From Escherichia phage vB_EcoM-ZQ3, in sequence record MW630116.1: a stretch of 64,000 nt of DNA. One strand, 5' to 3'. Made by a program: the position numbers and the translations under genes. Of this stretch, positions 35,779 through 62,890 are shown piece after piece. The notes beneath the pieces were generated by a model. That model worked only from the letters and a program-made list of their open reading frames with translations. It did no database searches and was not told the origin of the DNA. Every line of letters begins with the position of its first letter. Within the stretch, counting starts at the first letter, position 1.

Positions 35779-35814
35779 GTTTACATAAGGATGATGGCGT
35801 GTTACTATCATCCT
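35779..35814 (+). promoter_or_regulatory. early promoter cassette with palindrome
   Basis: GTTTAC...TACTAT with AGGATGAT/ATCATCCT inverted repeat flanking the -10. Confidence 0.5.
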
Positions 35815-35842
35815 ATCAAATAAACGACCTCAAGGAAATAAA

Positions 35843-36130
35843 ATGAAAACCTATAAAGAATTTATATCACCTGTTGCTAACGTTTCTACTCTGACCGAAG
35901 CAACCCTTACTTCCGAAGTTATTAAAGCAAATAAAGGACGTGAGGGTAAACCAATGATTAGTCTGGTTGACGGCGAAGAAGTAAAAGGTACTGTTTACTT
36001 AGGGGATGGATGGTCTGCTAAGAAAGATGGCGCTACTATTGTTATCTCTCCGGCTGAAGAGACTGCACTGTTTAAAGCTAAGCATATTTCTGTAGCTCAG
36101 CTTAAAATTGTTGCAAAAACTCTTCTGTAA
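35843..36130 (+). CDS. internal protein (IPI-like) with capsid-targeting N-terminus
   Basis: 95 aa; N-terminus MKTYKEF resembles T4 internal-protein capsid targeting sequence MKTYQEFIAE; position after 57B as T4 ipI. Confidence 0.7.
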   Translation: MKTYKEFISPVANVSTLTEATLTSEVIKANKGREGKPMISLVDGEEVKGTVYLGDGWSAKKDGATIVISPAEETALFKAKHISVAQLKIVAKTLL

Positions 36131-36133
36131 GTA

Positions 36134-36173
36134 GTTTACATGCTGATAGGACTATGTTATAGTAGTCCTATCA
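36134..36173 (+). promoter_or_regulatory. early promoter cassette with palindrome
   Basis: GTTTAC then GATAGGACTAT/ATAGTAGTCCTATC inverted repeat. Confidence 0.5.
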
Positions 36174-36199
36174 AATCAACAACCAAACGGAAAAAACAA

Positions 36200-36463
36200 A
36201 TGAAAACGTATAAAGAATTTATCGCTGAATCTCAATCTTCTACTCTGTCAGAGAACTACGAATCATTCTCTTACAACAACGACCATGCAATGTTCTACGA
36301 CCGAAACATCGGTACTTATGTCCATGTGTGGGGTGTTAAAGATGGTAACGTAGTTGTTAAGAAAAACTCTAAAGAAGGCAATGGTCGTGGCCAGGTAAAA
36401 ATTACCAGCAAGAAAGCTATCCAAGCTTACGTCGATTATGTTAAACGCGAAGCTGGTATTTAA
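36200..36463 (+). CDS. internal protein-like small protein with capsid-targeting N-terminus
   Basis: 87 aa from MKTYKEFIAE-SQSS; gp21-type cleavage context after Glu10. Confidence 0.6.
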   Translation: MKTYKEFIAESQSSTLSENYESFSYNNDHAMFYDRNIGTYVHVWGVKDGNVVVKKNSKEGNGRGQVKITSKKAIQAYVDYVKREAGI

Positions 36464-36465
36464 TA

Positions 36466-36505
36466 GTTTACATGATGATAGGACTATGTTATAGTAGTCC
36501 TATCA
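36466..36505 (+). promoter_or_regulatory. early promoter cassette with palindrome
   Basis: near-identical copy of cassette at 36134. Confidence 0.5.
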
Positions 36506-36525
36506 AAACATGAGAGGATAATAAA

Positions 36526-36711
36526 ATGAAACGCGCTGAACTGATTCGTAATGTTGCTGTAGTAATTGCTTCAATGGCTTTTAGTTTTTCGATGTTTGTA
36601 GGATTCATTTGTGGACTACTGACGACAACCGAAAACTCTATCTCATTGGTAGTGGCATTTCTAATCGGCTTAATCGCCATCGTTATGGATAAAATTGCAA
36701 AAGGTGAGTAA
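36526..36711 (+). CDS. small membrane protein (two predicted TM helices)
   Basis: 61 aa, hydrophobic; GAGAGGA RBS. Confidence 0.5.
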   Translation: MKRAELIRNVAVVIASMAFSFSMFVGFICGLLTTTENSISLVVAFLIGLIAIVMDKIAKGE

Positions 36712-36712
36712 A

Positions 36713-37961: not shown

Positions 37962-38036
37962 GGCCCTGTAGCTCAATGGGAGAGCTGTCAGCTCATAACT
38001 GATAGGTAGCTGGATCGAAACCAGCCAGGGTCACCA
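37962..38036 (+). tRNA. tRNA, anticodon CAT (Met or Ile2/lysidine)
   Basis: hand-folded cloverleaf: acceptor GGCCCTG/CAGGGTC, D stem GCTC/GAGC, anticodon loop CTCATAA, T arm GCTGG-ATCGAAA-CCAGC, encoded CCA. Confidence 0.8.
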
Positions 38037-38042
38037 AACAAA

Positions 38043-38114
38043 TGGTGCATCGTATAAAGGTTATTACGGGGAGCTGTTAACTCCTTTATCTTGGTTCGAG
38101 TCCAAGTGCGCCAG
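38043..38114 (+). tRNA. tRNA-Asn (anticodon GTT)
   Basis: acceptor TGGTGCA/TGCGCCA, anticodon stem GGGAG/CTCCT loop CTGTTAA, T arm CTTGG-TTCGAGT-CCAAG; D stem only 3 bp; no encoded CCA. Confidence 0.65.
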
Positions 38115-38188
38115 TAATTTAAACGAAGTAAATTAAGTGCTCTATCCAAATAATAAATACTCCTATATTTTATAGGAGATAATTGGTA

Positions 38189-38854
38189 ATGAGCATTTGT
38201 AAACATTGTAATATGGAATTTGATATTTCTAATAAACCTAAAGGATGGATGGCTAACCACACTAGATGGTGTAAATCCAACCCTAAATTGGAATTGTATA
38301 AAGAAAGTTCTAAATCAGCCATTGCAGCAATGAATAAAGCACGTATAGCTTCAGGTAATTTAAACCAGTATGTTGTATCTAAAAAGACTGGTGTCCCTGT
38401 AGTAATTTCGGAAGAGACTAGACAAAAATTGTCAGCCGCTTCATTAGGTAGAGAACACTCTGAGGAATCTAGAATAAAAATATCTAATGCTCGGAAAAAA
38501 TGGTTGAATGAAAACCCTGATAAACATCCTTGGAAGAAAAATACAAAATTTAAATCTGTGCCTTGTGAATTTTTGAAATCTAAATTAATAGAAAACGGAA
38601 TTTCATTTATTGAAGAATACCAACCGGTTAAAAACCGAGCGTATTGCACGGATATTGCTTTAATAGATAAAAAGATTATTATTGAAGTTAATGGAAACCA
38701 ACATTACTCCAATCCTAAGAAAAAGATTTTGGCCCCTTATTATAAAGAACGCCATGATATTATAAAATCATTAGGATGGGAAATATATGAACTTCATTAT
38801 GCTGAAGTTTATAAAGAAGATATTGTAAATAATTTAATTGCCTCTATAGTGTAA
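38189..38854 (+). CDS. putative homing endonuclease (Zn-finger / NUMOD3-like / C-terminal Vsr-DUF559-like nuclease domain)
   Basis: 222 aa from MSICKHC; CxxC...H..C N-terminus, NUMOD3-like ETRQKLSAASLGREHSEESRIKISNARKKW, C-terminal IIEVNGNQHY...D...GWEIYEL; located in tRNA cluster like T4 segB. Confidence 0.6.
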   Translation: MSICKHCNMEFDISNKPKGWMANHTRWCKSNPKLELYKESSKSAIAAMNKARIASGNLNQYVVSKKTGVPVVISEETRQKLSAASLGREHSEESRIKISNARKKWLNENPDKHPWKKNTKFKSVPCEFLKSKLIENGISFIEEYQPVKNRAYCTDIALIDKKIIIEVNGNQHYSNPKKKILAPYYKERHDIIKSLGWEIYELHYAEVYKEDIVNNLIASIV

Positions 38855-38915
38855 TGGATAGCATATAATCGTTCTAAGGTTAATGGTGAGAGTTCAAATC
38901 TTTCTAGAGGCACCA
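38840..38915 (+). tRNA. tRNA-Arg (anticodon TCT)
   Basis: acceptor GCCTCTA/TAGAGGC, anticodon stem TAATC/GGTTA loop GTTCTAA, T arm GAGAG-TTCAAAT-CTTTC, encoded CCA; overlaps last 15 nt of upstream ORF. Confidence 0.8.
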
Positions 38916-39588: not shown

Positions 39589-39617
39589 AGCCCCTTCCGA
39601 AAGGTTGGGGCTTTTTT
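39589..39617 (+). terminator. intrinsic terminator
   Basis: AGCCCCTTCC-GAAA-GGTTGGGGCT followed by TTTTTT. Confidence 0.55.
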
Positions 39618-39618
39618 G

Positions 39619-39626
39619 TATAAATA
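39619..39626 (+). promoter_or_regulatory. late promoter TATAAATA upstream of IP-like gene
   Basis: exact TATAAATA 36 nt upstream of ATG 39662. Confidence 0.45.
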
Positions 39627-40305: not shown

Positions 40306-40334
40306 TAGGGGGTCTATAACTTACTAAAAAAGTT

Positions 40335-40370
40335 GTTTACTTCTTCCCTAGTTGTGTTACTATAGTCCTA
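40335..40370 (+). promoter_or_regulatory. early promoter cassette
   Basis: GTTTAC-N17-TACTAT then conserved leader TTAAAACATGAGGAG. Confidence 0.5.
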
Positions 40371-40391
40371 TTAAAACATGAGGAGAATATT

Positions 40392-40895
40392 ATGAGTCTT
40401 TACACTGAACTGAATAAAAAATCTGAAGAATCCGCTGAAACTATTTTTAAAAACGTGCAAAAGCGTATTTTAGAAAAGATGTATAACACTGCAGCTAAAG
40501 GTGAAAAATCTTGCCGGTTTCCGATGAGGTGTTCTTCCGATTTATGCGCAAATACTATTGAATGGCTGGAAAGTGAAGGTCTTACGGTAGAGAAAAACCC
40601 GGCGTCTTCTATTGACAGTGAATCATATATTAGTATTTCTTGGGATAAATCAAGGGTAGAAGAGAAAGATGGTGATTGGGTTGTAGATGTTAAAACTTCT
40701 GATGGCGGACGTTCTGTTGAAGTTTCAGCTGTAGTTAAAGGTACCCACGAACAAAGGACTTGGGGTTGGGGTGGTGAAGAAAAAGAAATTGTTCTTAGTG
40801 TGATTGCCAGGTCAACTAGTAATAAAATTGCACAAAGCATCATTGACGCTGCAATTGCTGAAGCAGAAAAAATTTGCAAAATTAAAAATAAATGA
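40392..40895 (+). CDS. hypothetical protein
   Basis: 167 aa; GAGGAG RBS. Confidence 0.55.
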   Translation: MSLYTELNKKSEESAETIFKNVQKRILEKMYNTAAKGEKSCRFPMRCSSDLCANTIEWLESEGLTVEKNPASSIDSESYISISWDKSRVEEKDGDWVVDVKTSDGGRSVEVSAVVKGTHEQRTWGWGGEEKEIVLSVIARSTSNKIAQSIIDAAIAEAEKICKIKNK

Positions 40896-40934
40896 TGTAC
40901 AAACGCCAAGGACGGTGTTACTATAGACCTATCA
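40895..40934 (+). promoter_or_regulatory. early promoter cassette (variant -35 TGTACA)
   Basis: TGTACA...TACTAT then conserved leader TAGACCTATCAACTACAGAGGAG. Confidence 0.4.
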
Positions 40935-40953
40935 ACTACAGAGGAGAAACAAA

Positions 40954-41181
40954 ATGGCTACAGTTAGTATTGATGTCGTTGATTATGAATACACCGAAGA
41001 AGTTATTCGCAGCCGTCACCCTGAAGTTCGTATCGATTCAGTCCAAGATTCCAAGTTTTGGACAACCGAGCTTAATCTGAGTGGTCCTTATGAAGCTGTT
41101 AAGAAGTTCATGGTTGAAGAATACTGCGAAGGCATGCACCCCGAAGACGCCGAGTTTTATGTCAATTTGATTAAAAAATAA
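40954..41181 (+). CDS. hypothetical protein
   Basis: 75 aa acidic protein; GAGGAG RBS. Confidence 0.5.
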   Translation: MATVSIDVVDYEYTEEVIRSRHPEVRIDSVQDSKFWTTELNLSGPYEAVKKFMVEEYCEGMHPEDAEFYVNLIKK

Positions 41182-41253
41182 TTTACAAACTCTTGAGAGC
41201 AGAGTATAATGCTCTCATTGGATAATAAACACCACCAATTGAAAGGTAATAAT

Positions 41254-41896: not shown

Positions 41897-42319
41897 ATGC
41901 GAAACCAAAATAATGATATTGACTCAATGTTCGAAGAGTTCCGAAATAAGGTAAATCCACCTACGTCTTTAGTTGATTCATTACGATATGTTGCAACTGG
42001 ACGTAAATGGTACTGGTCGTCTTCTTATGAGACAACTGAATATGCAAATAACCGAAAATCTTTATTAGCCCCAGGTATTATGATTCATGATATCGGAGCT
42101 ATTGCTAAACTAGTTGCGGACCATGATATTAGATTCACTGATTTCGTTGCTCCTACGTGGTCTGTTTGTTGTTTAAACACTGAATGGGACTATATCAGTG
42201 AACGCTCTGAAGATTATTATGGTTTTAGAGATAAGCTCTTAAGGTCTAACATGTTTTATATCGATACTGAAGTTCTAGTCGATAATAAAATATTACTTTA
42301 CGTTAATCGTCGATTCTGA
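41897..42319 (+). CDS. hypothetical protein
   Basis: 140 aa from MRNQNNDIDSMFEEF; RBS AAAGGAG. Confidence 0.5.
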   Translation: MRNQNNDIDSMFEEFRNKVNPPTSLVDSLRYVATGRKWYWSSSYETTEYANNRKSLLAPGIMIHDIGAIAKLVADHDIRFTDFVAPTWSVCCLNTEWDYISERSEDYYGFRDKLLRSNMFYIDTEVLVDNKILLYVNRRF

Positions 42320-42323
42320 AACT

Positions 42324-42491
42324 ATGTATGAAGGCAAGCCTTTGCTTAAAAGAGTTGATGCTTTAAGTGCTATTGATGCGCTTTATGAAACCATGGTTGT
42401 TAGTCCTAATTTCACTAACAATTTAATCCTTGAGCAATTTATTATGGAATGTAGAGAATATGTCAAAGCCAACCCTATACATGCCAATTAA
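42324..42491 (+). CDS. small ORF ending in conserved FIMECR peptide
   Basis: 55 aa; carries the FIxECR junction motif shared with three other loci; overlaps next gene start. Confidence 0.3.
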   Translation: MYEGKPLLKRVDALSAIDALYETMVVSPNFTNNLILEQFIMECREYVKANPIHAN

Positions 42492-42855
42492 GCCCTGGGC
42501 ATACGAATACAAACGTAAATTAATCCCAAACGAAGTACTATTTGGCCCTATTTTAGCTTTAGCGTTTTTAATCTTTATGATTATAGGAGCTGTTTTAGAT
42601 TCCAATAAAGTTATATCGTCTGATGCAGCGTTTTCATTAATGTTCGTCGCACCACTTATTGTACCATTTTTATTAATGCCTATTAATTGGGCAGGATATT
42701 GGCACCAAGGCCGTCATCACAGAGCTCGAGTTCGTGAGTGGAAAGTTCAGTGCGCAAAAGCCCAAGCTCAGTATGATGAAGCTGTTAAAAAGTATGAATA
42801 CGAAGAAGCTATGGAATTCGTTAAGGAAATAAGATGCAAAAGCCTCAACTCTTAA
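42460..42855 (+). CDS. membrane protein
   Basis: 131 aa from MSKPTLYMP; two hydrophobic helices; basic C-terminus. Confidence 0.5.
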   Translation: MSKPTLYMPIKPWAYEYKRKLIPNEVLFGPILALAFLIFMIIGAVLDSNKVISSDAAFSLMFVAPLIVPFLLMPINWAGYWHQGRHHRARVREWKVQCAKAQAQYDEAVKKYEYEEAMEFVKEIRCKSLNS

Positions 42856-43085
42856 CCGTATGGCCGTCTCTTGGTGAGAACATTCTAATTTTTATTATGA
42901 GTATTGGCATGGGATTTGCCTTTGGATTAGTTGGATTTCTTATTGACGGCGTTGTGTTAGGATTTATAGGGAACACTGGTGGATTCACAGACCAATGGCA
43001 GGACCTAAGATACACCCAAGCCTTTGCATCTATCGCATCATTTTGTACTGTAAGTCTATTTTTACTACGATTTTATAAACCATAA
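42834..43085 (+). CDS. small membrane protein
   Basis: 83 aa, Gly-rich TM segments. Confidence 0.5.
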   Translation: MQKPQLLTVWPSLGENILIFIMSIGMGFAFGLVGFLIDGVVLGFIGNTGGFTDQWQDLRYTQAFASIASFCTVSLFLLRFYKP

Positions 43086-43190
43086 CAAGAAAAATAAAAA
43101 GGTTTACGCTTCTCAAATGATTAGTTATAATGAACTCCTAGCTAGACGTGAAAATGAAACAATAGAAAACTTTATTAAGGAATGTAGAAA

Positions 43191-43496
43191 ATGAGTAAGA
43201 TTATTGAAATTAAAGTACCAGAGTTTAATGATGCTAAATCCGCTTCAGATGCAATTTATAAACTTCTGAATCAAGCTGAACGTATCGAAGAAGAAGCAAC
43301 AAAGATCGCAGACCAATATGCCGTATCATTTTCTGTAGGTGATTATGGTAGTGGTCGTACTTATTATCCTAAGGGTGAAATTGTATCCCAGTGGATGAAA
43401 GATGAAATTGAAAATAATGGTGGTGATGTTAAACGTGAAGGTAATGGTTACGTTATTACTGAAGGTGCTTGGGTTTCGTCTTCTTCGATGTGCTAA
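43191..43496 (+). CDS. small protein, paralog 1 of C-terminal GxWVSSSxxC family
   Basis: 101 aa; ends GAWVSSSSMC; RBS AAGGAA. Confidence 0.55.
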   Translation: MSKIIEIKVPEFNDAKSASDAIYKLLNQAERIEEEATKIADQYAVSFSVGDYGSGRTYYPKGEIVSQWMKDEIENNGGDVKREGNGYVITEGAWVSSSSMC

Positions 43497-43505
43497 GGAA
43501 TCATT

Positions 43506-43778
43506 ATGTCTAAAGAACAAACCGAACTGGCTGAAGCCGTAGCAAAAATCTATGCAGCTATTGAGGCTGCCAAAGAAATTGCTGATAAACAAAACACAAC
43601 ATTCGACTTGTATCCGGCTTATGGTATGGGTGGAACCTATCATTCACCCGGACAACTTAAAGCCGATCTTGAACGTTGTACAAAAAACGGCTATGCTGAA
43701 TGGGCTGACGTTTACCAATACGACTACAACCTGAGCCTCGAAACTGGTGGTTGGATTGCATCTTCTCATACTTGCTAA
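43506..43778 (+). CDS. small protein, paralog 2 of C-terminal GxWVSSSxxC family
   Basis: 90 aa; ends GGWIASSHTC; preceded by TGCTAAGGAA..ATG. Confidence 0.55.
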   Translation: MSKEQTELAEAVAKIYAAIEAAKEIADKQNTTFDLYPAYGMGGTYHSPGQLKADLERCTKNGYAEWADVYQYDYNLSLETGGWIASSHTC

Positions 43779-43787
43779 GGAAACCAT

Positions 43788-43985
43788 ATGTCTCGTGAAT
43801 TAGATTGTGCTGTACGTACCGCAGTAGCTGCTCTGGAAAACCTGTTCCAAATTGCAACAGAAGAACGCGAAGAAGTTACATTGTGGATTGAAGATAACGC
43901 AGGTCTGAATCTCCAGGACGCGATCTCATTATCCAATAATAGCATTACTGTTCAAGGCTGGGTATCATCTAGTTATTCTTGCTAA
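43788..43985 (+). CDS. small protein, paralog 3 of C-terminal GxWVSSSxxC family
   Basis: 65 aa; ends QGWVSSSYSC; preceded by TGCTAAGGAA..ATG. Confidence 0.55.
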   Translation: MSRELDCAVRTAVAALENLFQIATEEREEVTLWIEDNAGLNLQDAISLSNNSITVQGWVSSSYSC

Positions 43986-43989
43986 AACA

Positions 43990-44029
43990 GTTTACAACAA
44001 GATAGGGCTATGTTATAGTAGTCCTATCA
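43990..44029 (+). promoter_or_regulatory. early promoter cassette with palindrome
   Basis: GTTTAC then GATAGGGCTA/TAGTCCTATC inverted repeat. Confidence 0.5.
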
Positions 44030-44047
44030 AATTAAATGGAGTCCACA

Positions 44048-44287
44048 ATGATTTATTACGAAAGTATCGGAACCAAAGTGGTTGGTAAAACCATTACTCG
44101 TGAAAAGTTTGCAAAGATATTCGATATGCGTTATAAAAAATCTGAACACAAAGGCATCCGATTCGAAGATGCACATTGTACAATTTGCCCTTATAATGAA
44201 GATATAAATGGTACAATCGTTCCATTGGTAGAGGCTTCACATGACGACCTCTGGGATGAATATAATATCGCATGTCGCGAAATTTAA
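44048..44287 (+). CDS. hypothetical protein
   Basis: 79 aa from MIYYESIG; GGAG RBS 7 nt upstream. Confidence 0.5.
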   Translation: MIYYESIGTKVVGKTITREKFAKIFDMRYKKSEHKGIRFEDAHCTICPYNEDINGTIVPLVEASHDDLWDEYNIACREI

Positions 44288-44312
44288 GTAATCTAAATTC
44301 GAGGAAATTATT

Positions 44313-45269
44313 ATGATGTTAGTTATTGGTTCTCGTGCACTTCACTATCACGGTCTTATTGATTCTAACGCTATCAAAAATAGTGACTGGGACTTTATTG
44401 CAGACCAAGGTTCTTGGAATGCATTCAAAAATCAAATGATGGGTGTATATGTTCATCAAGATAACCCTGATGTCCAAGTTTTCAAATGCTTCCATAACGG
44501 ACGCGAAACTCATTTTGAAGCATATATTGTTCCGGCAATCACTAATGTCCGTGAACTAGTCGGTGAACTCACTCCTGAAGATTTCACGTCTTCTTATGAC
44601 CTTTTAAAATACGCCAAGAAAAATTTGACTAAAGACCGTTTGAACGGGTTTTACTGGGCAACTCCTGAGATGTGCCTTGCAATTAAGATGTCTCATCGTT
44701 TCAAGAAAAATAATCCATTCTTTTTAAAGACTATGAACCATATTCAGTATCTTCGTGGTAAAGGTGTTAAACTGAATGATGAACTTACTGAAATTATGCT
44801 GAAACGTCAGAAAGAAACCTTGAACTATGCTCACCCAGTTCTTGACACTTCTAAAAGTGCGTTCTTTAAAGATGACATCTATACATATGACCATGATACT
44901 ATTCATGAAGCCATTGCACTAACAGACCGTCCAGCATATACATTTTATATGAAAGACGGTTCTGAAGTCATGACCTCACGCGAGAAGTTCGAATCGTTAC
45001 CAGAAATGGTCAAATTGGCCGGTGTATATGAAGAATCATGTGTACTAGCATTAGAACGTTCTCAGATTCCTAATGGCTTTGAAATCCATCCTCGTGATAG
45101 TTTTATGATGGCATTAGAAAAGGTCTGTACTTCAATCACATCAGGCTGGTTCCGTGAGTATGCCTGGGAGAACTACAGCAAAGTAGTAAGTATGTACCAA
45201 AGCTTAGGACATGATGATTACGTCAAACGTTTCAAACAAAATTTCCATATGGTAAAACCTTTCAAATAA
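44313..45269 (+). CDS. hypothetical protein with possible Pol-beta-type nucleotidyltransferase N-terminal motif
   Basis: 318 aa; N-terminus VIGSRALHYHGLIDSNAIKNSDWDFIAD fits hGS...D-x-D pattern loosely. Confidence 0.5.
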   Translation: MMLVIGSRALHYHGLIDSNAIKNSDWDFIADQGSWNAFKNQMMGVYVHQDNPDVQVFKCFHNGRETHFEAYIVPAITNVRELVGELTPEDFTSSYDLLKYAKKNLTKDRLNGFYWATPEMCLAIKMSHRFKKNNPFFLKTMNHIQYLRGKGVKLNDELTEIMLKRQKETLNYAHPVLDTSKSAFFKDDIYTYDHDTIHEAIALTDRPAYTFYMKDGSEVMTSREKFESLPEMVKLAGVYEESCVLALERSQIPNGFEIHPRDSFMMALEKVCTSITSGWFREYAWENYSKVVSMYQSLGHDDYVKRFKQNFHMVKPFK

Positions 45270-45282
45270 TTTCACCAAACTG

Positions 45283-45322
45283 TTTACAAGGTCTGTAGTT
45301 GTTGATACTATAGACCTATCAA
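45283..45322 (+). promoter_or_regulatory. early promoter cassette
   Basis: GTTTAC...TACTAT with AGGTCT/AGACCT inverted repeat. Confidence 0.5.
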
Positions 45323-45348
45323 AACAAATGAGTGAATGGAGATACAAA

Positions 45349-45549
45349 ATGACTACTTTGAATAAACGTTTCGGTAAAGCTAAACCTGGCTGTGCAGCAG
45401 AACGTCGTTACATTTTCGCTCAGTTAGAAGATGTAGAGTATCAGATTAATCAAGTTCACATTACTGGCATCGAGCCTATGTGTGGCCTTGAAGCTCTTCG
45501 TGAAGTTCGTGACGGGTATCGTCGTGATATCGAAGAAATGTCAAAATAA
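45349..45549 (+). CDS. hypothetical protein
   Basis: 66 aa from MTTLNKRFGK; GGAG RBS. Confidence 0.5.
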   Translation: MTTLNKRFGKAKPGCAAERRYIFAQLEDVEYQINQVHITGIEPMCGLEALREVRDGYRRDIEEMSK

Positions 45550-45589
45550 GTGTACAAACTGATAGGGCTATGTTATAGTAGTCCTATTA
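45550..45589 (+). promoter_or_regulatory. early promoter cassette (variant -35 GTGTAC)
   Basis: near-identical to cassette at 43990. Confidence 0.45.
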
Positions 45590-45607
45590 AAACATGAGGA
45601 GAATAAT

Positions 45608-45913
45608 ATGAAATTAACAGAAACCAACCGAATTGGCCTTTTAACGATACTTACATCACCTTTTTATGCTGTGCTTTCTGTTGCAGTATTACAAAAGGCC
45701 TATGGCATGGACGGTGTTCCTGGTTGTGTATTTTTATCACCGTTTTTGTTATTAGTTGGTGCTCTGTTATTATACGCGACAACAGGTTTCGACCATAATG
45801 TTTGGGTCAAGTTTAAACGTAGATTAACTGAAGAAGAACACGCTGAAGCTCGTAAAAAAGCTATTGAATCTACCAATCTAGAAAATTTCATTAAAGAATG
45901 TCGAGGAAAATAA
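45608..45913 (+). CDS. membrane protein ending in conserved FIKECR peptide
   Basis: 101 aa; two TM helices; C-terminus ENFIKECRGK. Confidence 0.55.
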   Translation: MKLTETNRIGLLTILTSPFYAVLSVAVLQKAYGMDGVPGCVFLSPFLLLVGALLLYATTGFDHNVWVKFKRRLTEEEHAEARKKAIESTNLENFIKECRGK

Positions 45914-45914
45914 T

Positions 45915-51745: not shown

Positions 51746-51762
51746 CTAGAGGAGAAATCAAA

Positions 51763-55296: not shown

Positions 55297-55326
55297 AGCC
55301 CCTTCCTTATGGTTGGGGCTTTTTTG
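55297..55326 (+). terminator. intrinsic terminator
   Basis: AGCCCCTTCC-TTAT-GGTTGGGGCT then TTTTTTG; near-duplicate of terminator at 39589. Confidence 0.55.
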
Positions 55327-55335
55327 CATTTAGCA

Positions 55336-55375
55336 GTTTACTTCTCCTCAGGTTGTGTTATAGTAGTCCTTACTT
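55336..55375 (+). promoter_or_regulatory. early promoter cassette with anti-SD arm
   Basis: GTTTAC...TTATAGTAG; TCTCCTC in spacer complementary to GAGGAGA at SD. Confidence 0.5.
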
Positions 55376-55391
55376 ACTAGAGGAGAACGTT

Positions 55392-55571
55392 ATGTCACGT
55401 AAAGAAAAAATTTCTAAGTTAATGTTTTTGATTGAAGAGTACGCTAATGCGGTATCTGATTGGGAAAATGCTCATGGTTGCGAAGATGGAGACATCGACA
55501 TTAACAGAGCTATGAAAAAGATGGCTGATACGCACACCGAATTGCAAATGTATGTTAACGAGATTATGTGA
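55392..55571 (+). CDS. hypothetical small protein
   Basis: 59 aa from MSRKEKISKL. Confidence 0.45.
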   Translation: MSRKEKISKLMFLIEEYANAVSDWENAHGCEDGDIDINRAMKKMADTHTELQMYVNEIM

Positions 55572-55834: not shown

Positions 55835-56050
55835 ATGTTATATGACCCAAGCGGTTGTTCTGAAGATGGTGTGATTGTTCTGGAGCCTGAGCATCCAGTT
55901 GGTGATGTATATCGCACCGTTGAAGTATGCGAATGTAATTTCGTTGAAGGTAATACTGGCGGAATTTCCATTGAGCAAGATGATGATGTTATTTACCTGG
56001 ATGCAAGCCAAGTAGAAGCTCTTTATAGCATTTTAAAACATAATCGGTAG
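55835..56050 (+). CDS. small Cys-rich protein, paralog B (MLYD..SEDGV)
   Basis: 71 aa; RBS GAGGAA; shares N-terminal MLYDxxGxSEDGVxxLxPE with paralog A. Confidence 0.45.
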   Translation: MLYDPSGCSEDGVIVLEPEHPVGDVYRTVEVCECNFVEGNTGGISIEQDDDVIYLDASQVEALYSILKHNR

Positions 56051-56090
56051 TTTACGTCTTGGTAGGACTATGATATAGTAATCCTACCAA
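56050..56090 (+). promoter_or_regulatory. early promoter cassette with palindrome
   Basis: GTTTAC then GGTAGGACTA/TAATCCTACC inverted repeat. Confidence 0.5.
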
Positions 56091-56214
56091 AACAAATGGA
56101 GAACAAAATGAAACTTTTGCTTATCGCTTATGTTGTAGTACAATACAATTATCCGATGTTTACTTATAACATGGTAAACGGCATAGTGAATCTTATTGAA
56201 ACGAGTATGGTAAA

Positions 56215-56394
56215 ATGACCCGTGAACAAGCTAATAAATTGATGGACCTTATCCGTGACTTACGTGAAGCCGATTCAGATTTGAGTGATGTAGCTTATCA
56301 TGCGGTAAATGATAACGGAGACTTTTATGAAAATCAGGTTGATGCTTGCCAGAATGCTTTGGTGAATTTTGTTGAAACTTTAATTGGTGAATAA
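56215..56394 (+). CDS. hypothetical small acidic protein
   Basis: 59 aa from MTREQANKLMDLIRDL. Confidence 0.4.
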   Translation: MTREQANKLMDLIRDLREADSDLSDVAYHAVNDNGDFYENQVDACQNALVNFVETLIGE

Positions 56395-56935: not shown

Positions 56936-57409
56936 ATGATTATCAATGAAAACTCTTGGCACTTTAAAATTTATGCCGCGTTCAATAGTACATGGAATCG
57001 TCCGAAAACGTTGTGTGCTTATTTTTGGAAAACGTTAATCCCGGTATTGGCTGTTTCAATTATTGGATTTGCGATTTTAGCAGCAGTAACAATCATTGGC
57101 CAAGAAATTTTAACTAGATTCTTTGTTTTTAGCAGTCTATGGACATTAGTTCCGGCCTCAATTGGTGTAGGCATTTTAATGGTAGCAGTCATGGCTTTTA
57201 TTTCTGCCGGGTTGGTAATTGGTCCGTCTTGGTTGTTAGACAAATATAACGACAGAAAATATTATAAAGAAATTGAGCTCATTGCGCGAAACCAAGAACG
57301 AATTAAAAATGGACTTGAGCCTATTGAACGTAAGAAATCATTAATAGGTGAATACCTTAAAGCTCGTAAAGAAAAAATCTGTCCTACTCTTGAATATAAG
57401 GCTAAATAA
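56936..57409 (+). CDS. membrane protein
   Basis: 157 aa; three hydrophobic helices. Confidence 0.5.
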   Translation: MIINENSWHFKIYAAFNSTWNRPKTLCAYFWKTLIPVLAVSIIGFAILAAVTIIGQEILTRFFVFSSLWTLVPASIGVGILMVAVMAFISAGLVIGPSWLLDKYNDRKYYKEIELIARNQERIKNGLEPIERKKSLIGEYLKARKEKICPTLEYKAK

Positions 57410-58395
57410 TGAAAACGATTGTTAAGGCTTACTTTGGTAGCCACCTTTATGGAACGTCTACTCCTGAATCTGACGTCGATTTTAAAGAAATTTATGTCCC
57501 TCACGCTCGTGATATCTTGACCGGTAACGTTAAAGAACACATGAGCAAGAACACGAATAACACATCTTCTAAGAACACAAAAGACGACGTGGACCATGAG
57601 TTGTATAGTCTCAAATATTTCTTTAAACTAGCTGCAGATGGCGAAACCGTCGCATTAGATATGCTTCACACTCCACCAAGTTTAGTAGTTAAATCTGATT
57701 TGCCTGATGTATGGAAGTATATTCAAGATAACAGGTCTCGTTTCTATACCACTAACATGAAATCTTATTTAGGGTATGTCCGTAAGCAAGCTTCTAAATA
57801 CGGTGTCAAGGGTTCTCGACTGGCTGTTCTTCGTCAAGCCCTTAAACGTTCTAATGAATGGGGACAATACTTTGATAATGGTGCAGTAATTCGTTTATCA
57901 CATATGAAGAATGTTCTGCCTGTAGGTGAATTTGCTTCGTGGGTTGAAACCGAAAACGAGAAAACAGGTAAGCAAACATTCTATAATCTGTTAGACCGTA
58001 AATTCCAAGACACATTAACCAATAAAGAGTTCAATGCCATCCTGGTTAAACTAGAAGAGAACTATGGCGAACGTGCTCGTAAGGCAGAAGCTAACGAAGG
58101 TATTGACTGGAAAGCATTGAGTCATGCATGTCGTGGTGGACTTCAACTATTAGAAATTTATAAAACCGGCGACCTGGTTTACCCACTTCAGGATGCTCCA
58201 TTTATTCTCGATGTTAAGCTTGGTAAACATACGTTTAAAACTGTACAAGAATTCCTAGAAGATATCGTTGACCAAGTTGAACATGCGTCAGAACAAGCTG
58301 CCAAGAACGGTATGCAACAAAAAGTAGATATGAGTTTCTGGGATGATTTCCTTGAACAAGTCTATCTCGAAAATCATAATTCTTACTATAAATAA
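57409..58395 (+). CDS. predicted nucleotidyltransferase (Pol-beta superfamily)
   Basis: 328 aa; N-terminal motif YFGSHLYGTSTPESDVDF (hG[GS]x9-13Dh[DE]h). Confidence 0.6.
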   Translation: MKTIVKAYFGSHLYGTSTPESDVDFKEIYVPHARDILTGNVKEHMSKNTNNTSSKNTKDDVDHELYSLKYFFKLAADGETVALDMLHTPPSLVVKSDLPDVWKYIQDNRSRFYTTNMKSYLGYVRKQASKYGVKGSRLAVLRQALKRSNEWGQYFDNGAVIRLSHMKNVLPVGEFASWVETENEKTGKQTFYNLLDRKFQDTLTNKEFNAILVKLEENYGERARKAEANEGIDWKALSHACRGGLQLLEIYKTGDLVYPLQDAPFILDVKLGKHTFKTVQEFLEDIVDQVEHASEQAAKNGMQQKVDMSFWDDFLEQVYLENHNSYYK

Positions 58396-58711: not shown

Positions 58712-58743
58712 TTTAGGGGGTTAAAATATTTTTAAAAAAGTAG

Positions 58744-58783
58744 TGTACATGCTTTTAGGATATGTTATTATAGACCTATCGAA
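58744..58783 (+). promoter_or_regulatory. early promoter cassette (variant -35 GTGTAC)
   Basis: GTGTAC...TTATTATAGACCTATC leader. Confidence 0.4.
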
Positions 58784-58809
58784 ACGAAATGAGTAAATTG
58801 GAGAATAAA

Positions 58810-59790
58810 ATGTTCAACGTTCAAATCAAAAAAGGTATCTATCGTAATAACGAAATCTCTGGTTCTTATGTCGCCACAAAGACATGGTTCCCGGCAAAGC
58901 TTAATCCTGAATGTTCCCACTTAGGTGATGGTAAAATTTTCGTTATGATTGATGGTTCTGAACGTGGAGTATGGGTCTTCAAATCAGACATCGTAATGGA
59001 AGGAGTTGAGACATCACCAGTTGCAGTTGTTGAAAGCACTGAAGATATGAAAACTCGTATCAACAAACGCTTTAAAGTAATGAACATGATGACGAATGGC
59101 ATTATCGATGGCAAAATTCGTTCACTCATTATTTCAGGTGCAGCTGGTATTGGTAAGACGTATTCTCTGGATAAAGCACTTAATAATGCTAATGATAATG
59201 GTTTCATCAAATACAAAAGCATTAATGGTAAAATCTCTGGTATTGGCCTTTACGAACAACTTTGGCTCAACCGTGATGCAGACAGCGTTCTCTTAATCGA
59301 CGACGTTGACGTATTCTCGGATATGGACATCTTGAACCTTCTTAAAGCAGCATTAGATACTGGAGATAAACGCAAAGTTTGCTGGAGCACTGCGTCATCT
59401 TATCTCGATGATAAGGGTATTGATAAAGAATTTGAGTTTGAAGGTACTATCGTTTTCATTACAAACGTTGATATCGATAAAGAGTTAGAACGCGGTTCGA
59501 AGCTTGCCCCACACCTTCAAGCTTTAGTATCTCGTTCAGTGTATCTCGACCTTGGAGTACACTCTAATGAAGAGATTATGGTTCGAGTTGAAGATGTAAT
59601 ATTATCTACTGACATGATGCAGAAACGTGGTCTGACAGATGCAGAAACGTATAAAGCATTGTCCTGGATGAAGGCCAACGTATCTCGTCTTCGCAATGTA
59701 TCATTACGTACGGCTCTTTATGTAGCAGATTTTATTTCAACTGATAAAGATGGTTGGGAAGAAATCTCTGAAGTAACTTTACTGAAATAA
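58810..59790 (+). CDS. P-loop ATPase (AAA-like)
   Basis: 326 aa from MFNVQIKKG; Walker A GAAGIGKT; Walker B VLLIDDVD. Confidence 0.6.
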   Translation: MFNVQIKKGIYRNNEISGSYVATKTWFPAKLNPECSHLGDGKIFVMIDGSERGVWVFKSDIVMEGVETSPVAVVESTEDMKTRINKRFKVMNMMTNGIIDGKIRSLIISGAAGIGKTYSLDKALNNANDNGFIKYKSINGKISGIGLYEQLWLNRDADSVLLIDDVDVFSDMDILNLLKAALDTGDKRKVCWSTASSYLDDKGIDKEFEFEGTIVFITNVDIDKELERGSKLAPHLQALVSRSVYLDLGVHSNEEIMVRVEDVILSTDMMQKRGLTDAETYKALSWMKANVSRLRNVSLRTALYVADFISTDKDGWEEISEVTLLK

Positions 59791-59928: not shown

Positions 59929-60216
59929 ATGGATTTTATGCAAAAAATTAAAGCCGCAGTCGAACTGTATGCTCATCGTATGGTTAGTTCTACGATGCAA
60001 TACAGCGAGGAGGTTCGCCAGGACTCTTCCTTGAAAGGAAAAACTAAAGCCTTAATTACCTTAGACCGTCTACAAAAGAATGCCCTAGAGTTGTTACAGT
60101 ACGACAAGGATGCATATAAGAAAGAACAGGAAGAGAAACTTAAATCTGAAAAATTACAAAAAATCCCGAAATCGGTTTGGTTCAGCGGAAAAAATACCGA
60201 AAAAAGTTTCTTTTAG
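59929..60216 (+). CDS. hypothetical protein
   Basis: 95 aa; RBS AGAGGA 8 nt upstream; Lys/Glu-rich. Confidence 0.45.
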   Translation: MDFMQKIKAAVELYAHRMVSSTMQYSEEVRQDSSLKGKTKALITLDRLQKNALELLQYDKDAYKKEQEEKLKSEKLQKIPKSVWFSGKNTEKSFF

Positions 60217-60217
60217 T

Positions 60218-60257
60218 TGTTTACAAGGTCTATGGTTGTGTTATTATAGACCTATCA
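60218..60257 (+). promoter_or_regulatory. early promoter cassette
   Basis: GTTTAC with AGGTCTA/TAGACCT inverted repeat. Confidence 0.5.
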
Positions 60258-60274
60258 ACTACTGGAGGTAAAAC

Positions 60275-60715
60275 ATGAACGCTAAAGATATTTTCAACCT
60301 GGTAAATTATAACGACGGTAAATTTAAATCTGAAGCACAAAGCAAGTTCTTTAATGACGTTGCTTATGGTAACGAGATTACCGTAGACGGAGGTCAGATT
60401 TTCAAATCTCGCTGGAATTGGATTGTTATCATCGATTCAGTTGGAATTGTGGAAGTCTACAAAAACACTAACAAAAAACGTACATTATTCTGGTCTCGTG
60501 AAACTAACGAGCAGTACAAAAAGGATAAAGCATCTCGTTTATCCAAAGTAACCCAGGAAGATATCGAGTTTATCAAGAAAGATATCGAGATGTACGAAAA
60601 TTTAATCGCTGAAGACCAGGCAGTACTCGATAAGTTTGATGAAATTAAAGCTTCTCGTGAAATCCCTGACTTCATGAAAGAAACAGTAAATGAACGATAC
60701 GCTCTCACTTCATAA
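60275..60715 (+). CDS. hypothetical protein
   Basis: 146 aa; GGAGG RBS. Confidence 0.55.
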   Translation: MNAKDIFNLVNYNDGKFKSEAQSKFFNDVAYGNEITVDGGQIFKSRWNWIVIIDSVGIVEVYKNTNKKRTLFWSRETNEQYKKDKASRLSKVTQEDIEFIKKDIEMYENLIAEDQAVLDKFDEIKASREIPDFMKETVNERYALTS

Positions 60716-60864
60716 CGTATTGCAAACTATACAAAACAGAAATCAGAACGTATTAGTACTCTTCGGAAATTTGAAGAACGTTTAAAGACGGTTCACGCAT
60801 AAACGCTTTACCCAAGGACGGGTTATAATGGTTTTGAGTTCCAATTCAATCTGAGGAAATAGTT

Positions 60865-61860
60865 ATGAGCATTACATCTGATGCGGTAAAACATGAAATT
60901 AACGGTTTATGTGCTTCACAGATTAAAGTGTGGTTTAAAGACCATAATGATCGCAGAGCACTTAATTATGAGCAAATTGCTATCCAAGTTCATCAATTAC
61001 TGACTAGTAAATTTGATTTTCATATGCCGTCTGAAATCTATACTAATCTACCGCGAGCGCTTATTAAAGCGTGTAAAGGTTACGGAAAATCAATGGCCGA
61101 TGGAATCTTCAGCGCGCTGAATAAACTTAACGTTCTGTCGATGATTAACTCTAACAACATCCTGCGTAATCTAGGACGTACTGATTTGTTCGGTCGGGAA
61201 CAGTGTAAAATGCCTTTGAAATGGATTGTTGCTCATCTTAACGAGAACCAAACACGTTTTATGGCCGTATCAGCACGCTTACAAATGGGCCTAGATCGTC
61301 AGATGAACTTTAAAACTCATCCACGTTATTCAGGTTCAACTGTCTTTTATAAATGTGAGCTTCAAAAGGTCGGTGGCAAAACTGTCTTAGTAGTTCGTGT
61401 AACGTTTGAAGGACGACGTCAAGGATATTTTGACCTAATCGGCTCTGGTCTTAAACATTGTGGATTTATTGACGAAGTTGATATCAAGCGAGACGGCATT
61501 GGATACCGTATTGGATATGTTTGTACTCTTAAAGAAGAGATTTCAGGACCAGCACCAGGACTAAAAGACGTTAGATATAAAGACGAGCTCGTTGAAGAAA
61601 TAAAAGAAGTTGAATATGATATCAACCAAGAAGATGCTCTTAAAGACCTTATTGATGAACTGAACCAAGACGTTATTCCGGTTCAGAAATTTGAATCAAA
61701 ACATGCTGAGCAAATCAAATACTTTGAAGCTTTGATTAACGAACTTAATGTAACTATTCAACAGACTGACGATGAAATCTCACGATTAGCAGGCTTAAAC
61801 GGTAAAAATAAAACAGAACGAGCTAATCTTATTCAGGTAGTAAAACTTCTTAAGGAATGA
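60865..61860 (+). CDS. hypothetical protein with C-terminal coiled coil
   Basis: 331 aa; RBS GAGGAA; heptad-rich C-terminal 60 aa. Confidence 0.55.
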   Translation: MSITSDAVKHEINGLCASQIKVWFKDHNDRRALNYEQIAIQVHQLLTSKFDFHMPSEIYTNLPRALIKACKGYGKSMADGIFSALNKLNVLSMINSNNILRNLGRTDLFGREQCKMPLKWIVAHLNENQTRFMAVSARLQMGLDRQMNFKTHPRYSGSTVFYKCELQKVGGKTVLVVRVTFEGRRQGYFDLIGSGLKHCGFIDEVDIKRDGIGYRIGYVCTLKEEISGPAPGLKDVRYKDELVEEIKEVEYDINQEDALKDLIDELNQDVIPVQKFESKHAEQIKYFEALINELNVTIQQTDDEISRLAGLNGKNKTERANLIQVVKLLKE

Positions 61861-61895
61861 TGTACAACCAAGGATGGTTGGAGTATAATAAATTT
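61861..61895 (+). promoter_or_regulatory. early promoter cassette (TGTACA -35, TATAAT -10)
   Basis: shares 27 identical nt TACAACCAAGGATGGTTGGAGTATAAT with cassette at 62853. Confidence 0.5.
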
Positions 61896-61915
61896 TTCAA
61901 CATGAGGAATATAAA

Positions 61916-62848
61916 ATGGCTTTTATTACACGTAGAGAACTTATCAAAGAATTTACCTCGAACGCATATACTCCAGGACCTAATCCTATCCGTATGCCTG
62001 TAAAGACTCCTGAAGAGATTGAGGAAATCTGTTCATATTATGGGATTACTTCTCGTAAGTTTACTCAATTTGAATGCGTTACTAACACACCCGTTAAAGA
62101 GTTCATTAAAAATGGCGAGTTCAGCCGTTTATTAGCCAAACAGAAACTTCGTAATTTTTGTATTGGCGGTGAAGGACAATATTTCGCTAAGCAGTTCCGG
62201 AATAACCTTAACAATCTGATGGCCATTGCTTCTCGTATTCGTCCTCAAGCAATTAACATGAAACATTTGAAATATACTTACGATAAGTTGGAAATCATGG
62301 TTATCAGTGAGAATGAGTTCACTCTTACGTATAAACCTAAGAATGATAACGTTGCTCGTGTATTCCACCAAGCGTTGGAAGTGTTAGGTGATAATATTCA
62401 CCAGATTAAAGCAATTTATTCTCGTGAGCTTAATATTATCGACCCTATCAAGAATAAGGGCCATATCGCTATCCAGGCTCGTGTATCTATTGGTAAAAAG
62501 GTTCCTGCACCATGGTGGCACAAAGACTCTGAATACTATCAAAATCTTAAAAAGGAAAATGCAACGTTCGAAGCGTCAATTATTGTCGCCCCGACTATCG
62601 GTAAGATTAATTCAGCTTCAGCACAACCTGTTATGTTTAACGGCACACCGTCGACTAAACTGGAAATCTCTAACGGTCTTCTTCCTGCCGAAGATTACTA
62701 TTATAATCAAATCAAAGCCACTGCGGACCAACTGTCTGATGAACTTGACAAAGCACAAGCTAAGCTTCGTGATGCTCAACAAGTAGTTACCAAGCTCCAG
62801 TTGCAGTACTCTAAACTTTTTAACGCAATGAATGCATTAAAATCATAA
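61916..62848 (+). CDS. hypothetical protein with C-terminal coiled coil
   Basis: 310 aa; C-terminal LSDELDKAQAKLRDAQQVVTKLQLQYSKL. Confidence 0.55.
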   Translation: MAFITRRELIKEFTSNAYTPGPNPIRMPVKTPEEIEEICSYYGITSRKFTQFECVTNTPVKEFIKNGEFSRLLAKQKLRNFCIGGEGQYFAKQFRNNLNNLMAIASRIRPQAINMKHLKYTYDKLEIMVISENEFTLTYKPKNDNVARVFHQALEVLGDNIHQIKAIYSRELNIIDPIKNKGHIAIQARVSIGKKVPAPWWHKDSEYYQNLKKENATFEASIIVAPTIGKINSASAQPVMFNGTPSTKLEISNGLLPAEDYYYNQIKATADQLSDELDKAQAKLRDAQQVVTKLQLQYSKLFNAMNALKS

Positions 62849-62852
62849 ATCA

Positions 62853-62890
62853 GTTTACAACCAAGGATGGTTGGAGTATAATGAATCTAT
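62853..62890 (+). promoter_or_regulatory. early promoter cassette (GTTTAC -35, TATAAT -10)
   Basis: near-identical to cassette at 61861. Confidence 0.5.

Follow-up and report, generated by a model that had tools for sequence, protein, structure and literature searches.

Early promoter cassettes with embedded hairpins in the hyperplastic region of phage vB_EcoM-ZQ3: candidate marks of read-through RNA and sites of gene exchange

Promoter early stem-loops (PeSLs) of T4-type phages, as described in the available parts of the two relevant papers (PMC2839356, PMC4122927), combine a sigma-70-like early promoter, AT-rich on its upstream side, with a stem-loop and, at the 3′ end, a Shine-Dalgarno sequence and ATG. 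The stem-loop is mostly between the −35 and −10 or overlaps the −10, and the elements cluster in hyperplastic regions where they adjoin indels. The subject here is a family of 19 cassettes of this kind in a 64,000-nucleotide stretch of DNA from Escherichia phage vB_EcoM-ZQ3 (MW630116.1), the whole of which is called the window. The original prediction, made from the letters of the window alone, likened the cassettes to PeSLs, and every sequence-level defining feature is indeed present. Judged on sequence, the copies are new PeSL members in the RB69 lineage, and so belong to a known element class; the text of Arbiol et al. 2010 (PMC2839356) has no instance of ‘RB69’. The PST/T4 consensus TTTACW N17 TAYWAT, the positions of hairpins in the published subclasses, the clustering among dispensable genes and the flanking of indels between close relatives, as far as the available text gives them, all agree with what is found in the window. 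Two differences stand out. The hairpins here are AT-rich and without a T-run, so that the published terminator role is unsupported by their sequence, and a subset is predicted to mask the Shine-Dalgarno sequence, a role not seen in the available parts of the PeSL papers.

The promoters themselves have close counterparts. Early promoters of T4 comprise UP, −35, TGn and −10 elements together with further conserved regions (Hinton 2010, PMC2988021, in its available part), and 57 early promoters have been predicted in RB69 (Nolan et al. 2006, PMC1524935). The cassettes share their features: GTTTAC occupies −36 to −31, 3′ of a UP-like A-tract, TGn precedes a −10 in which −11 is A and −7 is T, positions −3 to −1 are rich in C, and equivalent elements stand before the same genes in T4. 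The hairpin is where they part. Neither ‘hairpin’ nor ‘stem-loop’ is in the text of Nolan et al. 2006, ‘hairpin’ is present twice in Hinton 2010 (the occurrence in its available part concerns intrinsic terminators), and no mention of an inverted repeat or an anti-Shine-Dalgarno inside promoters was seen in the former or in the available part of the latter.

For hairpins that overlap an initiation region the nearest precedents are T4 genes e, soc, 49 and I-TevI, where long transcripts are masked and starts internal to the hairpin leave the ribosome-binding site free (Uzan and Miller 2010, PMC3014915). As in some of the cassettes, the Shine-Dalgarno or AUG pairs with an upstream segment containing or preceding a promoter. 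However, the internal promoter of gene e is late and its masked RNAs are early (Uzan and Miller 2010). In the cassettes the internal promoter would instead be an early sigma-70 promoter, and the masked RNAs any read-through, possibly late RNA too. The T4 genes soc, 49 and I-TevI resemble gene e in having a late internal promoter and early masked RNAs. A further comparison is with the morons of lambdoid phages (as set out by Nolan et al. 2006), which are likewise small accessory genes with their own signals, gained and lost between relatives. In contrast to morons, the novel RB69 open reading frames (ORFs) do not differ from the remaining genome in GC content (Nolan et al. 2006), the cassettes lack a terminator on the 3′ side, and the exchange here is between repeated promoters by homology rather than by illegitimate insertion.

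All 19 positions first listed carry the element, always on the + strand, and the listed starts are correct to within 1 nt. From 5′ to 3′ there is an A-rich stretch (the aligned copies give the consensus ...TTTnAAAAAATA directly 5′ of GTTTAC, which corresponds to the upstream stretch of PeSLs), GTTTAC, a spacer of 16–17 nts ending in TGn, the −10 TAnnnT, a conserved A(G/A)(T/A)CCTATCAA, a short A-rich leader, a GGAG/GAGG Shine-Dalgarno and ATG. The −35 is xTTTAC or TGTAC in every copy (TGTAC in three) and TGn is present in most, while some five unconstrained spacer bases vary from copy to copy. This is the −35/−10 architecture originally described, except that the spacer had been put at 17–18 nts. 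The strict pattern GTTTAC-N15-TGnTAnnnT has 10 occurrences on the + strand and none on the −, whereas dinucleotide shuffles predict 0.08 for the two strands together. A profile made from the 19 copies with nhmmer, the family model that had been suggested as a check, recovers exactly those 19, all on the + strand with E<1e-5, and no other; the next-best match, at 41170–41217, has E=0.1. The first list is essentially the whole family. Eighteen copies are in the 35.8–63 kb region and one is an outlier at 2437. The conserved leader leads to a Shine-Dalgarno and ATG in all 19, as foreseen, but at 49444 no gene follows, only a three-codon remnant of denV. The description of the cassettes as ‘upstream of most small ORFs’ was overstated, there being 18 of them for ~62 genes in 34–64 kb.

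The window is about 95% identical to genomes of Mosigvirus, the T4-type coliphage group that includes RB69 and JS09, and is itself from an RB69-like Mosigvirus; for the region the identity is 94–97%. By the annotation of JS09, RB69 and T4, its + strand from 34 to 64 kb is the early hyperplastic stretch, with the gene order gp1, 57A, 57B, ipI, tRNA.4-.2, tRNAs, e.x, nudE, e, denV, ip genes, vs.x, regB, vs, tk.x, tk, rI, mobD.x, nrdC.11 to nrdC.3. All but one of the 19 copies are within its ipI-tRNA-e-denV-vs-tk-nrdC region, which is a hyperplastic location such as PeSLs occupy, and those of the downstream genes that were scanned against PHROGs encode internal virion proteins or products of unknown function. 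With a sequence-only covariance model built on the 19 copies, 88 more were located in RB69, T4, a20, AV118 and AV111, every one on the early-transcription strand; those of T4 precede denV, trna.4, mobD.2, ipI, nrdC.10, e.8, nrdC.8, ipIII, regB and others. The 3′ part of the conserved leader matches the RegB/S1 site GGAGAAUAAAA, a single-stranded target (Durand et al. 2006). On their sequence the cassettes each combine a sigma-70 early promoter of the T4 type with a translation start region. That they are active as promoters we infer because equivalent elements precede the same genes in T4 and from the published work on T4 and RB69 early promoters. An Rfam scan of the whole window at gathering thresholds gives three tRNAs only, and no RNA family at any cassette.

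Each copy was folded as RNA from the −35 to the ATG and scored against dinucleotide shuffles. The mean z score over the 19 copies is −2.44, with 10 of them below −2, whereas 200 random 61-nt windows from the same region average −0.39 (P=4e-6) and the 61 nts 5′ of 33 cassette-free gene starts average +0.23 (P=3e-6). The promoters of RB69 and T4 over-fold as well (mean z −2.0 and −2.2). A hairpin, the stem-loop of the PeSL description, is present in about 15 of the 19. The inverted repeat that had been predicted is upheld by this excess folding; its ‘usual’ bracketing of the −10 is true of only 8 copies. These eight form class A, where the stem brackets or overlaps the −10 (35779, 36134, 36466, 43990, 45283, 45550, 56050 and 60218). 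In class B the Shine-Dalgarno region has its reverse complement in the spacer, just 3′ of the −35; there are four clear copies, 48577 (denV), 49444, 51706 (regB) and 55336 (mobD.2a), and weak versions at 40335 and 2437. Class C comprises 61861 and 62853, with a 6-bp hairpin within the spacer. In 17 of the 19 main helices the 5′ arm is upstream of the predicted transcription start, and in the remaining two copies the spacer hairpin is likewise upstream of it. Leaders of the cassettes’ own transcripts, taken from the predicted +1, fold at about 0 kcal/mol. Since its 5′ arm is upstream of the predicted start, the hairpin should be absent from RNA made by the cassette’s own promoter, and can form only in read-through RNA from an upstream promoter, or in DNA.

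For class B this has a predicted consequence for initiation of translation. The probability that the stretch from Shine-Dalgarno to AUG is unpaired is 0.71 in the own transcript and 0.35 in read-through RNA for denV, 0.60 and 0.24 for regB, and 0.65 and 0.32 for mobD.2a; over the four clear copies, 49444 included, it goes from 0.54–0.71 to 0.24–0.35. A paired Shine-Dalgarno or AUG, with the pairing arm upstream of the start, is the arrangement expected for masking, and it is found in class B and not in class A. Gene e of the window served as a positive control. Its hairpin (~47781–47808, ATACCTCC..GGAGGTAT, free energy of folding, dG, −16.3) is just 3′ of a AATAAATA motif resembling a late promoter, and its ATG, at 47809, is 800 bp upstream of denV. 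The logic of denV appears to be opposite to that of gene e. The lysozyme and internal head protein genes upstream of denV are expressed late in T4; no late promoter upstream of denV or regB was located in the window. If masking operates, translation of denV and regB would be confined to the brief period when the early promoters fire, the reverse of the logic of the nearby lysozyme gene. What may be new here, from the sequence comparisons, is the hairpin specific to read-through RNA, and chiefly the anti-Shine-Dalgarno embedded in the early promoters of denV and regB. A literature search found no earlier description of a denV or regB promoter hairpin, though the older T4 literature may hold one, and no published maps of T4 5′ or 3′ ends.

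The strands differ in folding. When the 89 unique cassettes of the window, T4 and six Mosigvirus relatives are folded in both orientations, mean z is −2.31 for the sense strand and −1.67 for its reverse complement (P=2e-5; the mean dG gap is 2 kcal/mol), as expected if sense RNA tolerates G.U pairs. Within the window, left arms pair at a mean of −11.7 kcal/mol with the right arm of their own copy and at −9.2 with the right arms of others, a difference reached in 2/20000 permutations. For the commonest class A register, changes on both sides of a pair are seen at 7 of 12 pairs, a number that none of 500 shuffles reaches, and shifted-register controls score far lower; T4 mobD.2, for instance, has GACAAGATTA/TAATCTTGTC where the window has GGTAGGACTA/TAATCCTACC. 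By eye, with no statistic, there is no clear association between a class A hairpin and the quality of the downstream RegB site. A palindromic operator for a protein was rejected on the grounds that arm sequences differ between copies while pairing is retained; the variable register relative to the −35 and −10, and the better folding of sense than antisense, also speak against it.

Orthologues extend the comparison beyond the window. The anti-Shine-Dalgarno hairpin of regB, in 12 distinct promoter sequences with RegB identity of 97–40%, is kept in five lineages, each with its own extension: CTAG/CTAG, CTTGACTG/CAGTTAAG, CTTTAT/ATAAAG, TGTAAG/CTTACA, and GGGCC/GGCCC + TTTCCTT. Own partners pair at a mean of −19.6 kcal/mol and those of other orthologues at −13.2. 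The only regB promoter without the hairpin is at a distant locus, L027 (51-165). An intrinsic terminator, GGGCTCCTAGGAGCCC-T5, adjoins it directly on the 5′ side, as though blocking of read-through and masking of the Shine-Dalgarno were alternative solutions. For denV, where 28 distinct promoter sequences with DenV identity of 99–60% were compared, the Shine-Dalgarno and AUG are predicted to be masked in read-through RNA in nearly every T4-like lineage, with unpaired probabilities of 0.14–0.5 as against 0.6–0.87 in the own transcript. This comes about in two ways. In the first architecture the anti-Shine-Dalgarno is immediately after the −35; in the second (B2) the −10 hexamer and discriminator pair with the sequence from the Shine-Dalgarno through the AUG. 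Own-partner pairing of the denV orthologues averages −15.4 kcal/mol compared with −10.1 (0/20000 permutations). Search for tRNA.4 orthologues gave T4-like and window-like sequences only, too few lineages to add covariation. Judging from these comparisons, that the pairing has arisen again and again with different sequences is difficult to account for unless it is under selection. There is about an even chance that the generalization also holds, namely that T4-type early promoters commonly carry, in the promoter or directly 3′ of it but before the start site, a hairpin 5′ arm that marks read-through RNA as distinct from locally initiated RNA, with masking of the Shine-Dalgarno, AUG and RegB site at denV and regB conserved across lineages in at least two architectures. 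[A different arrangement is seen at the denV loci L056, L059, L062 and L064 (61-160; phages of 345–378 kb), where the −35 TTGAC is within the stem of a terminator, GGGTTGAC-ttcg-GTCAGCCC-T5, whose T-run is the promoter spacer, a compact overlap of terminator and promoter.]

Stopping read-through is therefore one solution in related phages, as the terminators of these jumbo-phage denV loci, overlapping the −35, and of L027, just upstream of the regB promoter, indicate. This brings up the possibility that the stem-loops of the cassettes are themselves terminators or attenuators acting on upstream RNA polymerase, so that a cassette ends one unit and starts the next. A stem-loop of RB49 cut lacZ expression as much as rrnB T1 did, according to the available part of Arbiol et al. 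2010 (PMC2839356), and the hairpins of the window are intergenic and would form only in RNA initiated upstream. Their construction does not favor it. The stems are AT-rich, of 8–12 bp with dG −10 to −20 kcal/mol, a T-run follows none of the 19, the tails being A-rich, and a scan of 35–55 kb gave 27 terminator-like sites, none of them at a cassette. In addition, the hairpins of class B and of the B2 type of denV end within the Shine-Dalgarno or AUG, as would suit a role in translation and not in termination. Since none of the hairpins has a T-run, intrinsic terminators of the canonical kind were rejected, and termination or attenuation in the broader sense is unlikely to be what the stem-loops are for.

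The cassettes are also where relatives differ in gene content. Chained blastn alignments of the window with JS09, HY126, DCP548, AV118, RB69 and a20 over 34–64 kb yield 29 unique indels or replacements with 58 edges. Thirty of the edges are ≤35 bp from a cassette, a zone that makes up 9.1% of the region (P=1.5e-16 with a uniform null). The enrichment holds, at P=3e-4, against a null of gene junctions, for which a hand tally gave 18 of about 61 junctions as carrying a cassette. Ten events have both edges at cassettes (P=1e-4), and 15 of the 18 cassettes touch at least one event (also a hand tally). Overlap of the flanks by ≥20 bp is the signature of exchange between direct repeats; all eight events that have it are located at cassettes, and in each a single hybrid has arisen from two cassettes (confirmed by eye in events d and h, 45283/45550 and 61861/62853). 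The proposal that the cassettes mark recombination joints, for which comparison with relatives had been put forward as a check, is supported by these counts.

Individual events illustrate the point. Gene 36200–36463 is absent from JS09, HY126, RB69 and a20, with a 76-bp junction overlap; RB69 and AV118 are without gene 45349–45549, and their junction is at the −35 hexamer. AV118 lacks nrdC.5 (966 bp), the crossover being within 27 nts common to cassettes 61861 and 62853. Gains are seen too: HY126 and DCP548 have an extra gene flanked by a duplicate of cassette 40895 (46–74 bp overlap), AV118 has one flanked by a duplicate of cassette 58744 (65 bp overlap), and in a20 cassette 55336 is tandemly duplicated. 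At the ip genes the shared homology reaches 20–30 nts into the conserved N-terminal coding sequence.

Such a concentration of rearrangement edges could mean that the inverted repeats act as DNA, either as a cruciform or single-strand hairpin that attracts recombination or nucleases such as endonuclease VII, or by modulating promoter opening, and that they are kept for recombinogenicity or mobility. The available part of Arbiol et al. 2010 (PMC2839356) has one crossover mapped to the loop of a stem-loop and mini-circles detected, and variation of the arms with pairing kept points to a structure rather than a protein-binding site. A cruciform, however, needs both strands, whereas the sense strand out-folds its complement; the crossovers are scattered (for example at the −35 hexamer, or in the first 20–30 nts of ip genes) and not focused on the hairpin; the hairpin-free cassettes 40895, 49079 and 58744 are joints as well; and the tie of class B arms to the Shine-Dalgarno would be meaningless in DNA. 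Because of the strand asymmetry, the hairpin-free joints and the unfocused crossovers a role at the DNA level is less likely, and it is rated as quite improbable.

A plainer alternative is that the cassettes are simply strong promoters held to a consensus, with hairpins a result of composition and the link to indels a result of selection for breakpoints between genes. The shared sequence among copies can largely be explained by functional constraint, with no need for mobility: in T4 early promoters the −35, TGn/−10, start region and Shine-Dalgarno are each known to be under constraint, and because the first three are constrained, near-identity of copies before unrelated genes is not proof of copying. 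Where the hairpin is selected, the left arm must in turn be complementary to the start region. About five spacer bases are free and do vary, and one third of the rearrangements avoid cassettes. Constraint on its own is nevertheless disfavored, as the folding exceeds that of shuffles, random windows and cassette-free upstream regions, own partners pair better and compensatory changes recur in paralogues and orthologues, the enrichment of edges survives the gene-junction null, and repeat-bounded indels are found at cassettes only. It is very improbable as the full explanation.

The account preferred here, and thought probable as a whole, is that each cassette is an early expression module with a hairpin that exists only in read-through RNA, and that modules recombine with each other. 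A module would consist of the UP-like A-rich stretch, the −35 GTTTAC, TGn with the −10, the start region CCT-A-TCAA, whose A is the likely +1, and an unstructured leader in which the GGAG Shine-Dalgarno upstream of the ATG doubles as the RegB/S1 cleavage site. Host sigma-70 RNA polymerase would fire the modules directly after infection. Most modules have an inverted repeat, whose hairpin would form only in RNA from an upstream promoter. In class B its 5′ arm would act as an anti-Shine-Dalgarno, so that the ribosome-binding and RegB sites are masked in read-through RNA and the genes are translated mainly off transcripts from their own early promoter. Since RegB is inhibited by secondary structure, as known from the literature, the hairpin would also shield GGAG in such RNA. 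In class A the upstream message would be the likely target: on its 3′ side the hairpin may serve to stabilise it, or to slow polymerase as an attenuator. As direct repeats of 40–80 bp among dispensable genes, the modules would allow the homologous recombination system of the phage to cross over between them and so delete, duplicate or swap the genes in between.

Several points weigh against this account. Predicted masking is partial, as the unpaired probability in read-through RNA is still 0.24–0.37, and for T4 denV the drop is a small one, from 0.70 to 0.60; the hairpin could moreover be melted by ribosomes in the course of translating the gene upstream. Class A hairpins leave Shine-Dalgarno accessibility unchanged, and their function is unexplained by masking. 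Three or four copies, 40895, 49079 and 58744 among them, have no significant hairpin. The start site relative to which the arms were placed was assumed to be 7 nts past the −10. The class A alignment was preselected for folding in register, which inflates the percentage paired, though compensatory changes are less affected by that bias, and the permutation and Wilcoxon values overstate independence because the compared sequences are mutually related. With regard to exchange, selection for intact genes would put edges between genes regardless, and 9 of the 29 events do not involve a cassette; non-cassette events include a tRNA block, a 4.2-kb deletion in a20, a homing-endonuclease insertion and the replacement of tk.2/tk.3.

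Besides re-identifying a published element class in another T4-type lineage, the analysis gives statistically controlled support, at the level of sequence, for promoter cassettes as exchange sites of accessory genes, including those for internal virion proteins. A hairpin arm placed upstream of the start, with an anti-Shine-Dalgarno that covaries at denV and regB, would be a simple way to tie the translation of a gene to its own promoter. This is relevant where promoters are densely arrayed on one strand and the translation of each gene is to be kept with its promoter, and may bear on the switch-off of early gene expression, which is incompletely understood (reviewed by Uzan and Miller 2010, PMC3014915). 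It is also relevant to the engineering of T4-like phages by insertion of genes between cassettes.

The individual cassettes, all on the + strand, are as follows. That at 2437 (2417–2499) is outside the main region, between two ORFs of the − or late strand, which from their lengths alone are presumably g24 and g23. It would drive ORF 2497–2766 (phrog_6003, unknown function), has a profile E of 1.6e-10 and z −1.6, and its −35 GTTTAC can pair with GTAAAC right after the Shine-Dalgarno, a weak class B version. The next three are class A. Cassette 35779 (35759–35845), before the internal virion protein gene 35843–36130, has arms AGGATGAT/ATCATCCT that overlap the −10 (dG −14.6, z −3.0), and breakpoints at 35865|36166 and 35865|35811. 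Cassette 36134 (36114–36202) is before the extra ip-like gene 36200–36463, and its arms GATAGGACTA/TAGTCCTATC bracket the −10 (dG −18.0, z −5.2). Cassette 36466 (36446–36528), before the tRNA.4 gene 36526–36711, has identical arms to 36134 (dG −20.6, z −5.9), whereas its T4 orthologue has ATAGGGT/ACCCTAT.

Cassette 40335 (40315–40394) is before 40392–40895, the gene for a mosaic protein of unknown function; it has a weak anti-Shine-Dalgarno, TTCTTCCC, with z +0.5, and is the right edge of the 39617|40329 replacement. The 167-amino acid product of 40392–40895 matches PHROG 18312 over residues 1–92 and PHROG 8232 over residues 92–167, and in relatives the 3′ part of the gene is replaced between a breakpoint within it, at 40652, and cassette 40895. 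The latter (40876–40956) is before frd.3 (40954–41181) and has no significant hairpin (z −0.8). Three more of class A follow: 43990 (43970–44050), before the RB69ORF135c homologue 44048–44287, whose hairpin has one G.U pair (dG −16.1, z −3.1); 45283 (45262–45351), before accessory gene 45349–45549, with arms AGGTCTGTAG/CTATAGACCT (dG −16.6, z −2.8); and 45550 (45530–45610), before the RB69ORF133c homologue 45608–45913 (dG −14.9, z −3.1). The leader CATGAGGAGAAUA(U/A)UAUGA, present at 40379–40394 and 45595–45610, has an upstream AUG that opens a 5-codon frame with its UGA overlapping the real AUG; the upstream AUG is probably incidental to the Shine-Dalgarno context.

The class B cassette 48577 (48557–48636) is before denV (48634–49047), and its spacer TTCCTCCAAG pairs with CTTGGAGGAA, which contains the Shine-Dalgarno (dG −19.1, z −4.7). 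Cassette 49079 (49059–49141) precedes the internal virion protein gene 49139–49441, has no significant hairpin (z −0.5), and has breakpoints at 49054|49064, 49168|49616 and 49168|49115. Cassette 49444 (49424–49501), also class B, is a diverged duplicate of the denV cassette (dG −20.2, z −4.9). On its 3′ side ATGACTCGATGA is the first three codons of denV and is followed by a stop, so the ip gene 49139–49441 is between the denV promoter and a partial repeat of it. The JS09 annotation has a DenV fragment at the equivalent site, and the T4 copy most similar to 49444, in a comparison by eye, is the ipIII promoter. The class B cassette 51706 (51686–51765) is before regB (51763–52221), has TTCTCCTCTAG pairing with CTAGAGGAGAA (dG −17.3, z −3.1), and is the right edge of the 51412|51702 replacement. 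In the last clear class B cassette, 55336 (55316–55394), before mobD.2a (55392–55571), TTCTCCTC pairs with GAGGAGAA (dG −13.5).

Cassette 56050 (56030–56110) is class A and precedes a 36-amino acid ORF, 56108–56218, that is followed by tk.1; its arms are TGGTAGGACTA/TAATCCTACCA (dG −15.7, z −4.0), and those of the T4 mobD.2 counterpart TTGACAAGATTA/TAATCTTGTCAA. At 58744 (58723–58812), before nrdC.10 (58810–59790), the hairpin is not significant (z +1.1). Cassette 60218 (60199–60277), before nrdC.8 (60275–60715), is class A with arms AGGTCTAT/ATAGACCT (dG −13.6, z −1.5), whereas the T4 nrdC.8 orthologue is class B, with GTTCCTCTGTGG/CTACGGAGGAAC. The final two share the 6-bp spacer hairpin CAACCA/TGGTTG: 61861 (61840–61918; z −1.9), before nrdC.5 (61916–62848), and 62853 (62833–62913; z −1.3), before nrdC.3 (62911–63861).

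Some features of the rearranged region are away from the cassettes. Two edges, 39591–39626 and 58387–58394, coincide with the late-promoter motif TATAAATA, the former, at 39619, directly following the intrinsic terminator GCCCC..GGGGC-T6; other short regulatory motifs may be further exchange points. The three tRNA genes are at 37962–38033, 38043–38114 and 38840–38912. An 874-bp block, 38037–38912, is missing in JS09, RB69, a20 and AV118 and present in HY126, and is not bounded by cassettes. In a20 (L011) the missing 4.2 kb (42189–46411) extends over parts of e.5 through RB69ORF132c, and a 7-bp microhomology fuses two genes. The same phage has a 770-bp homing-endonuclease gene at 57400–57405, between ORF 56936–57409 and nrdC.11, where there is no cassette.

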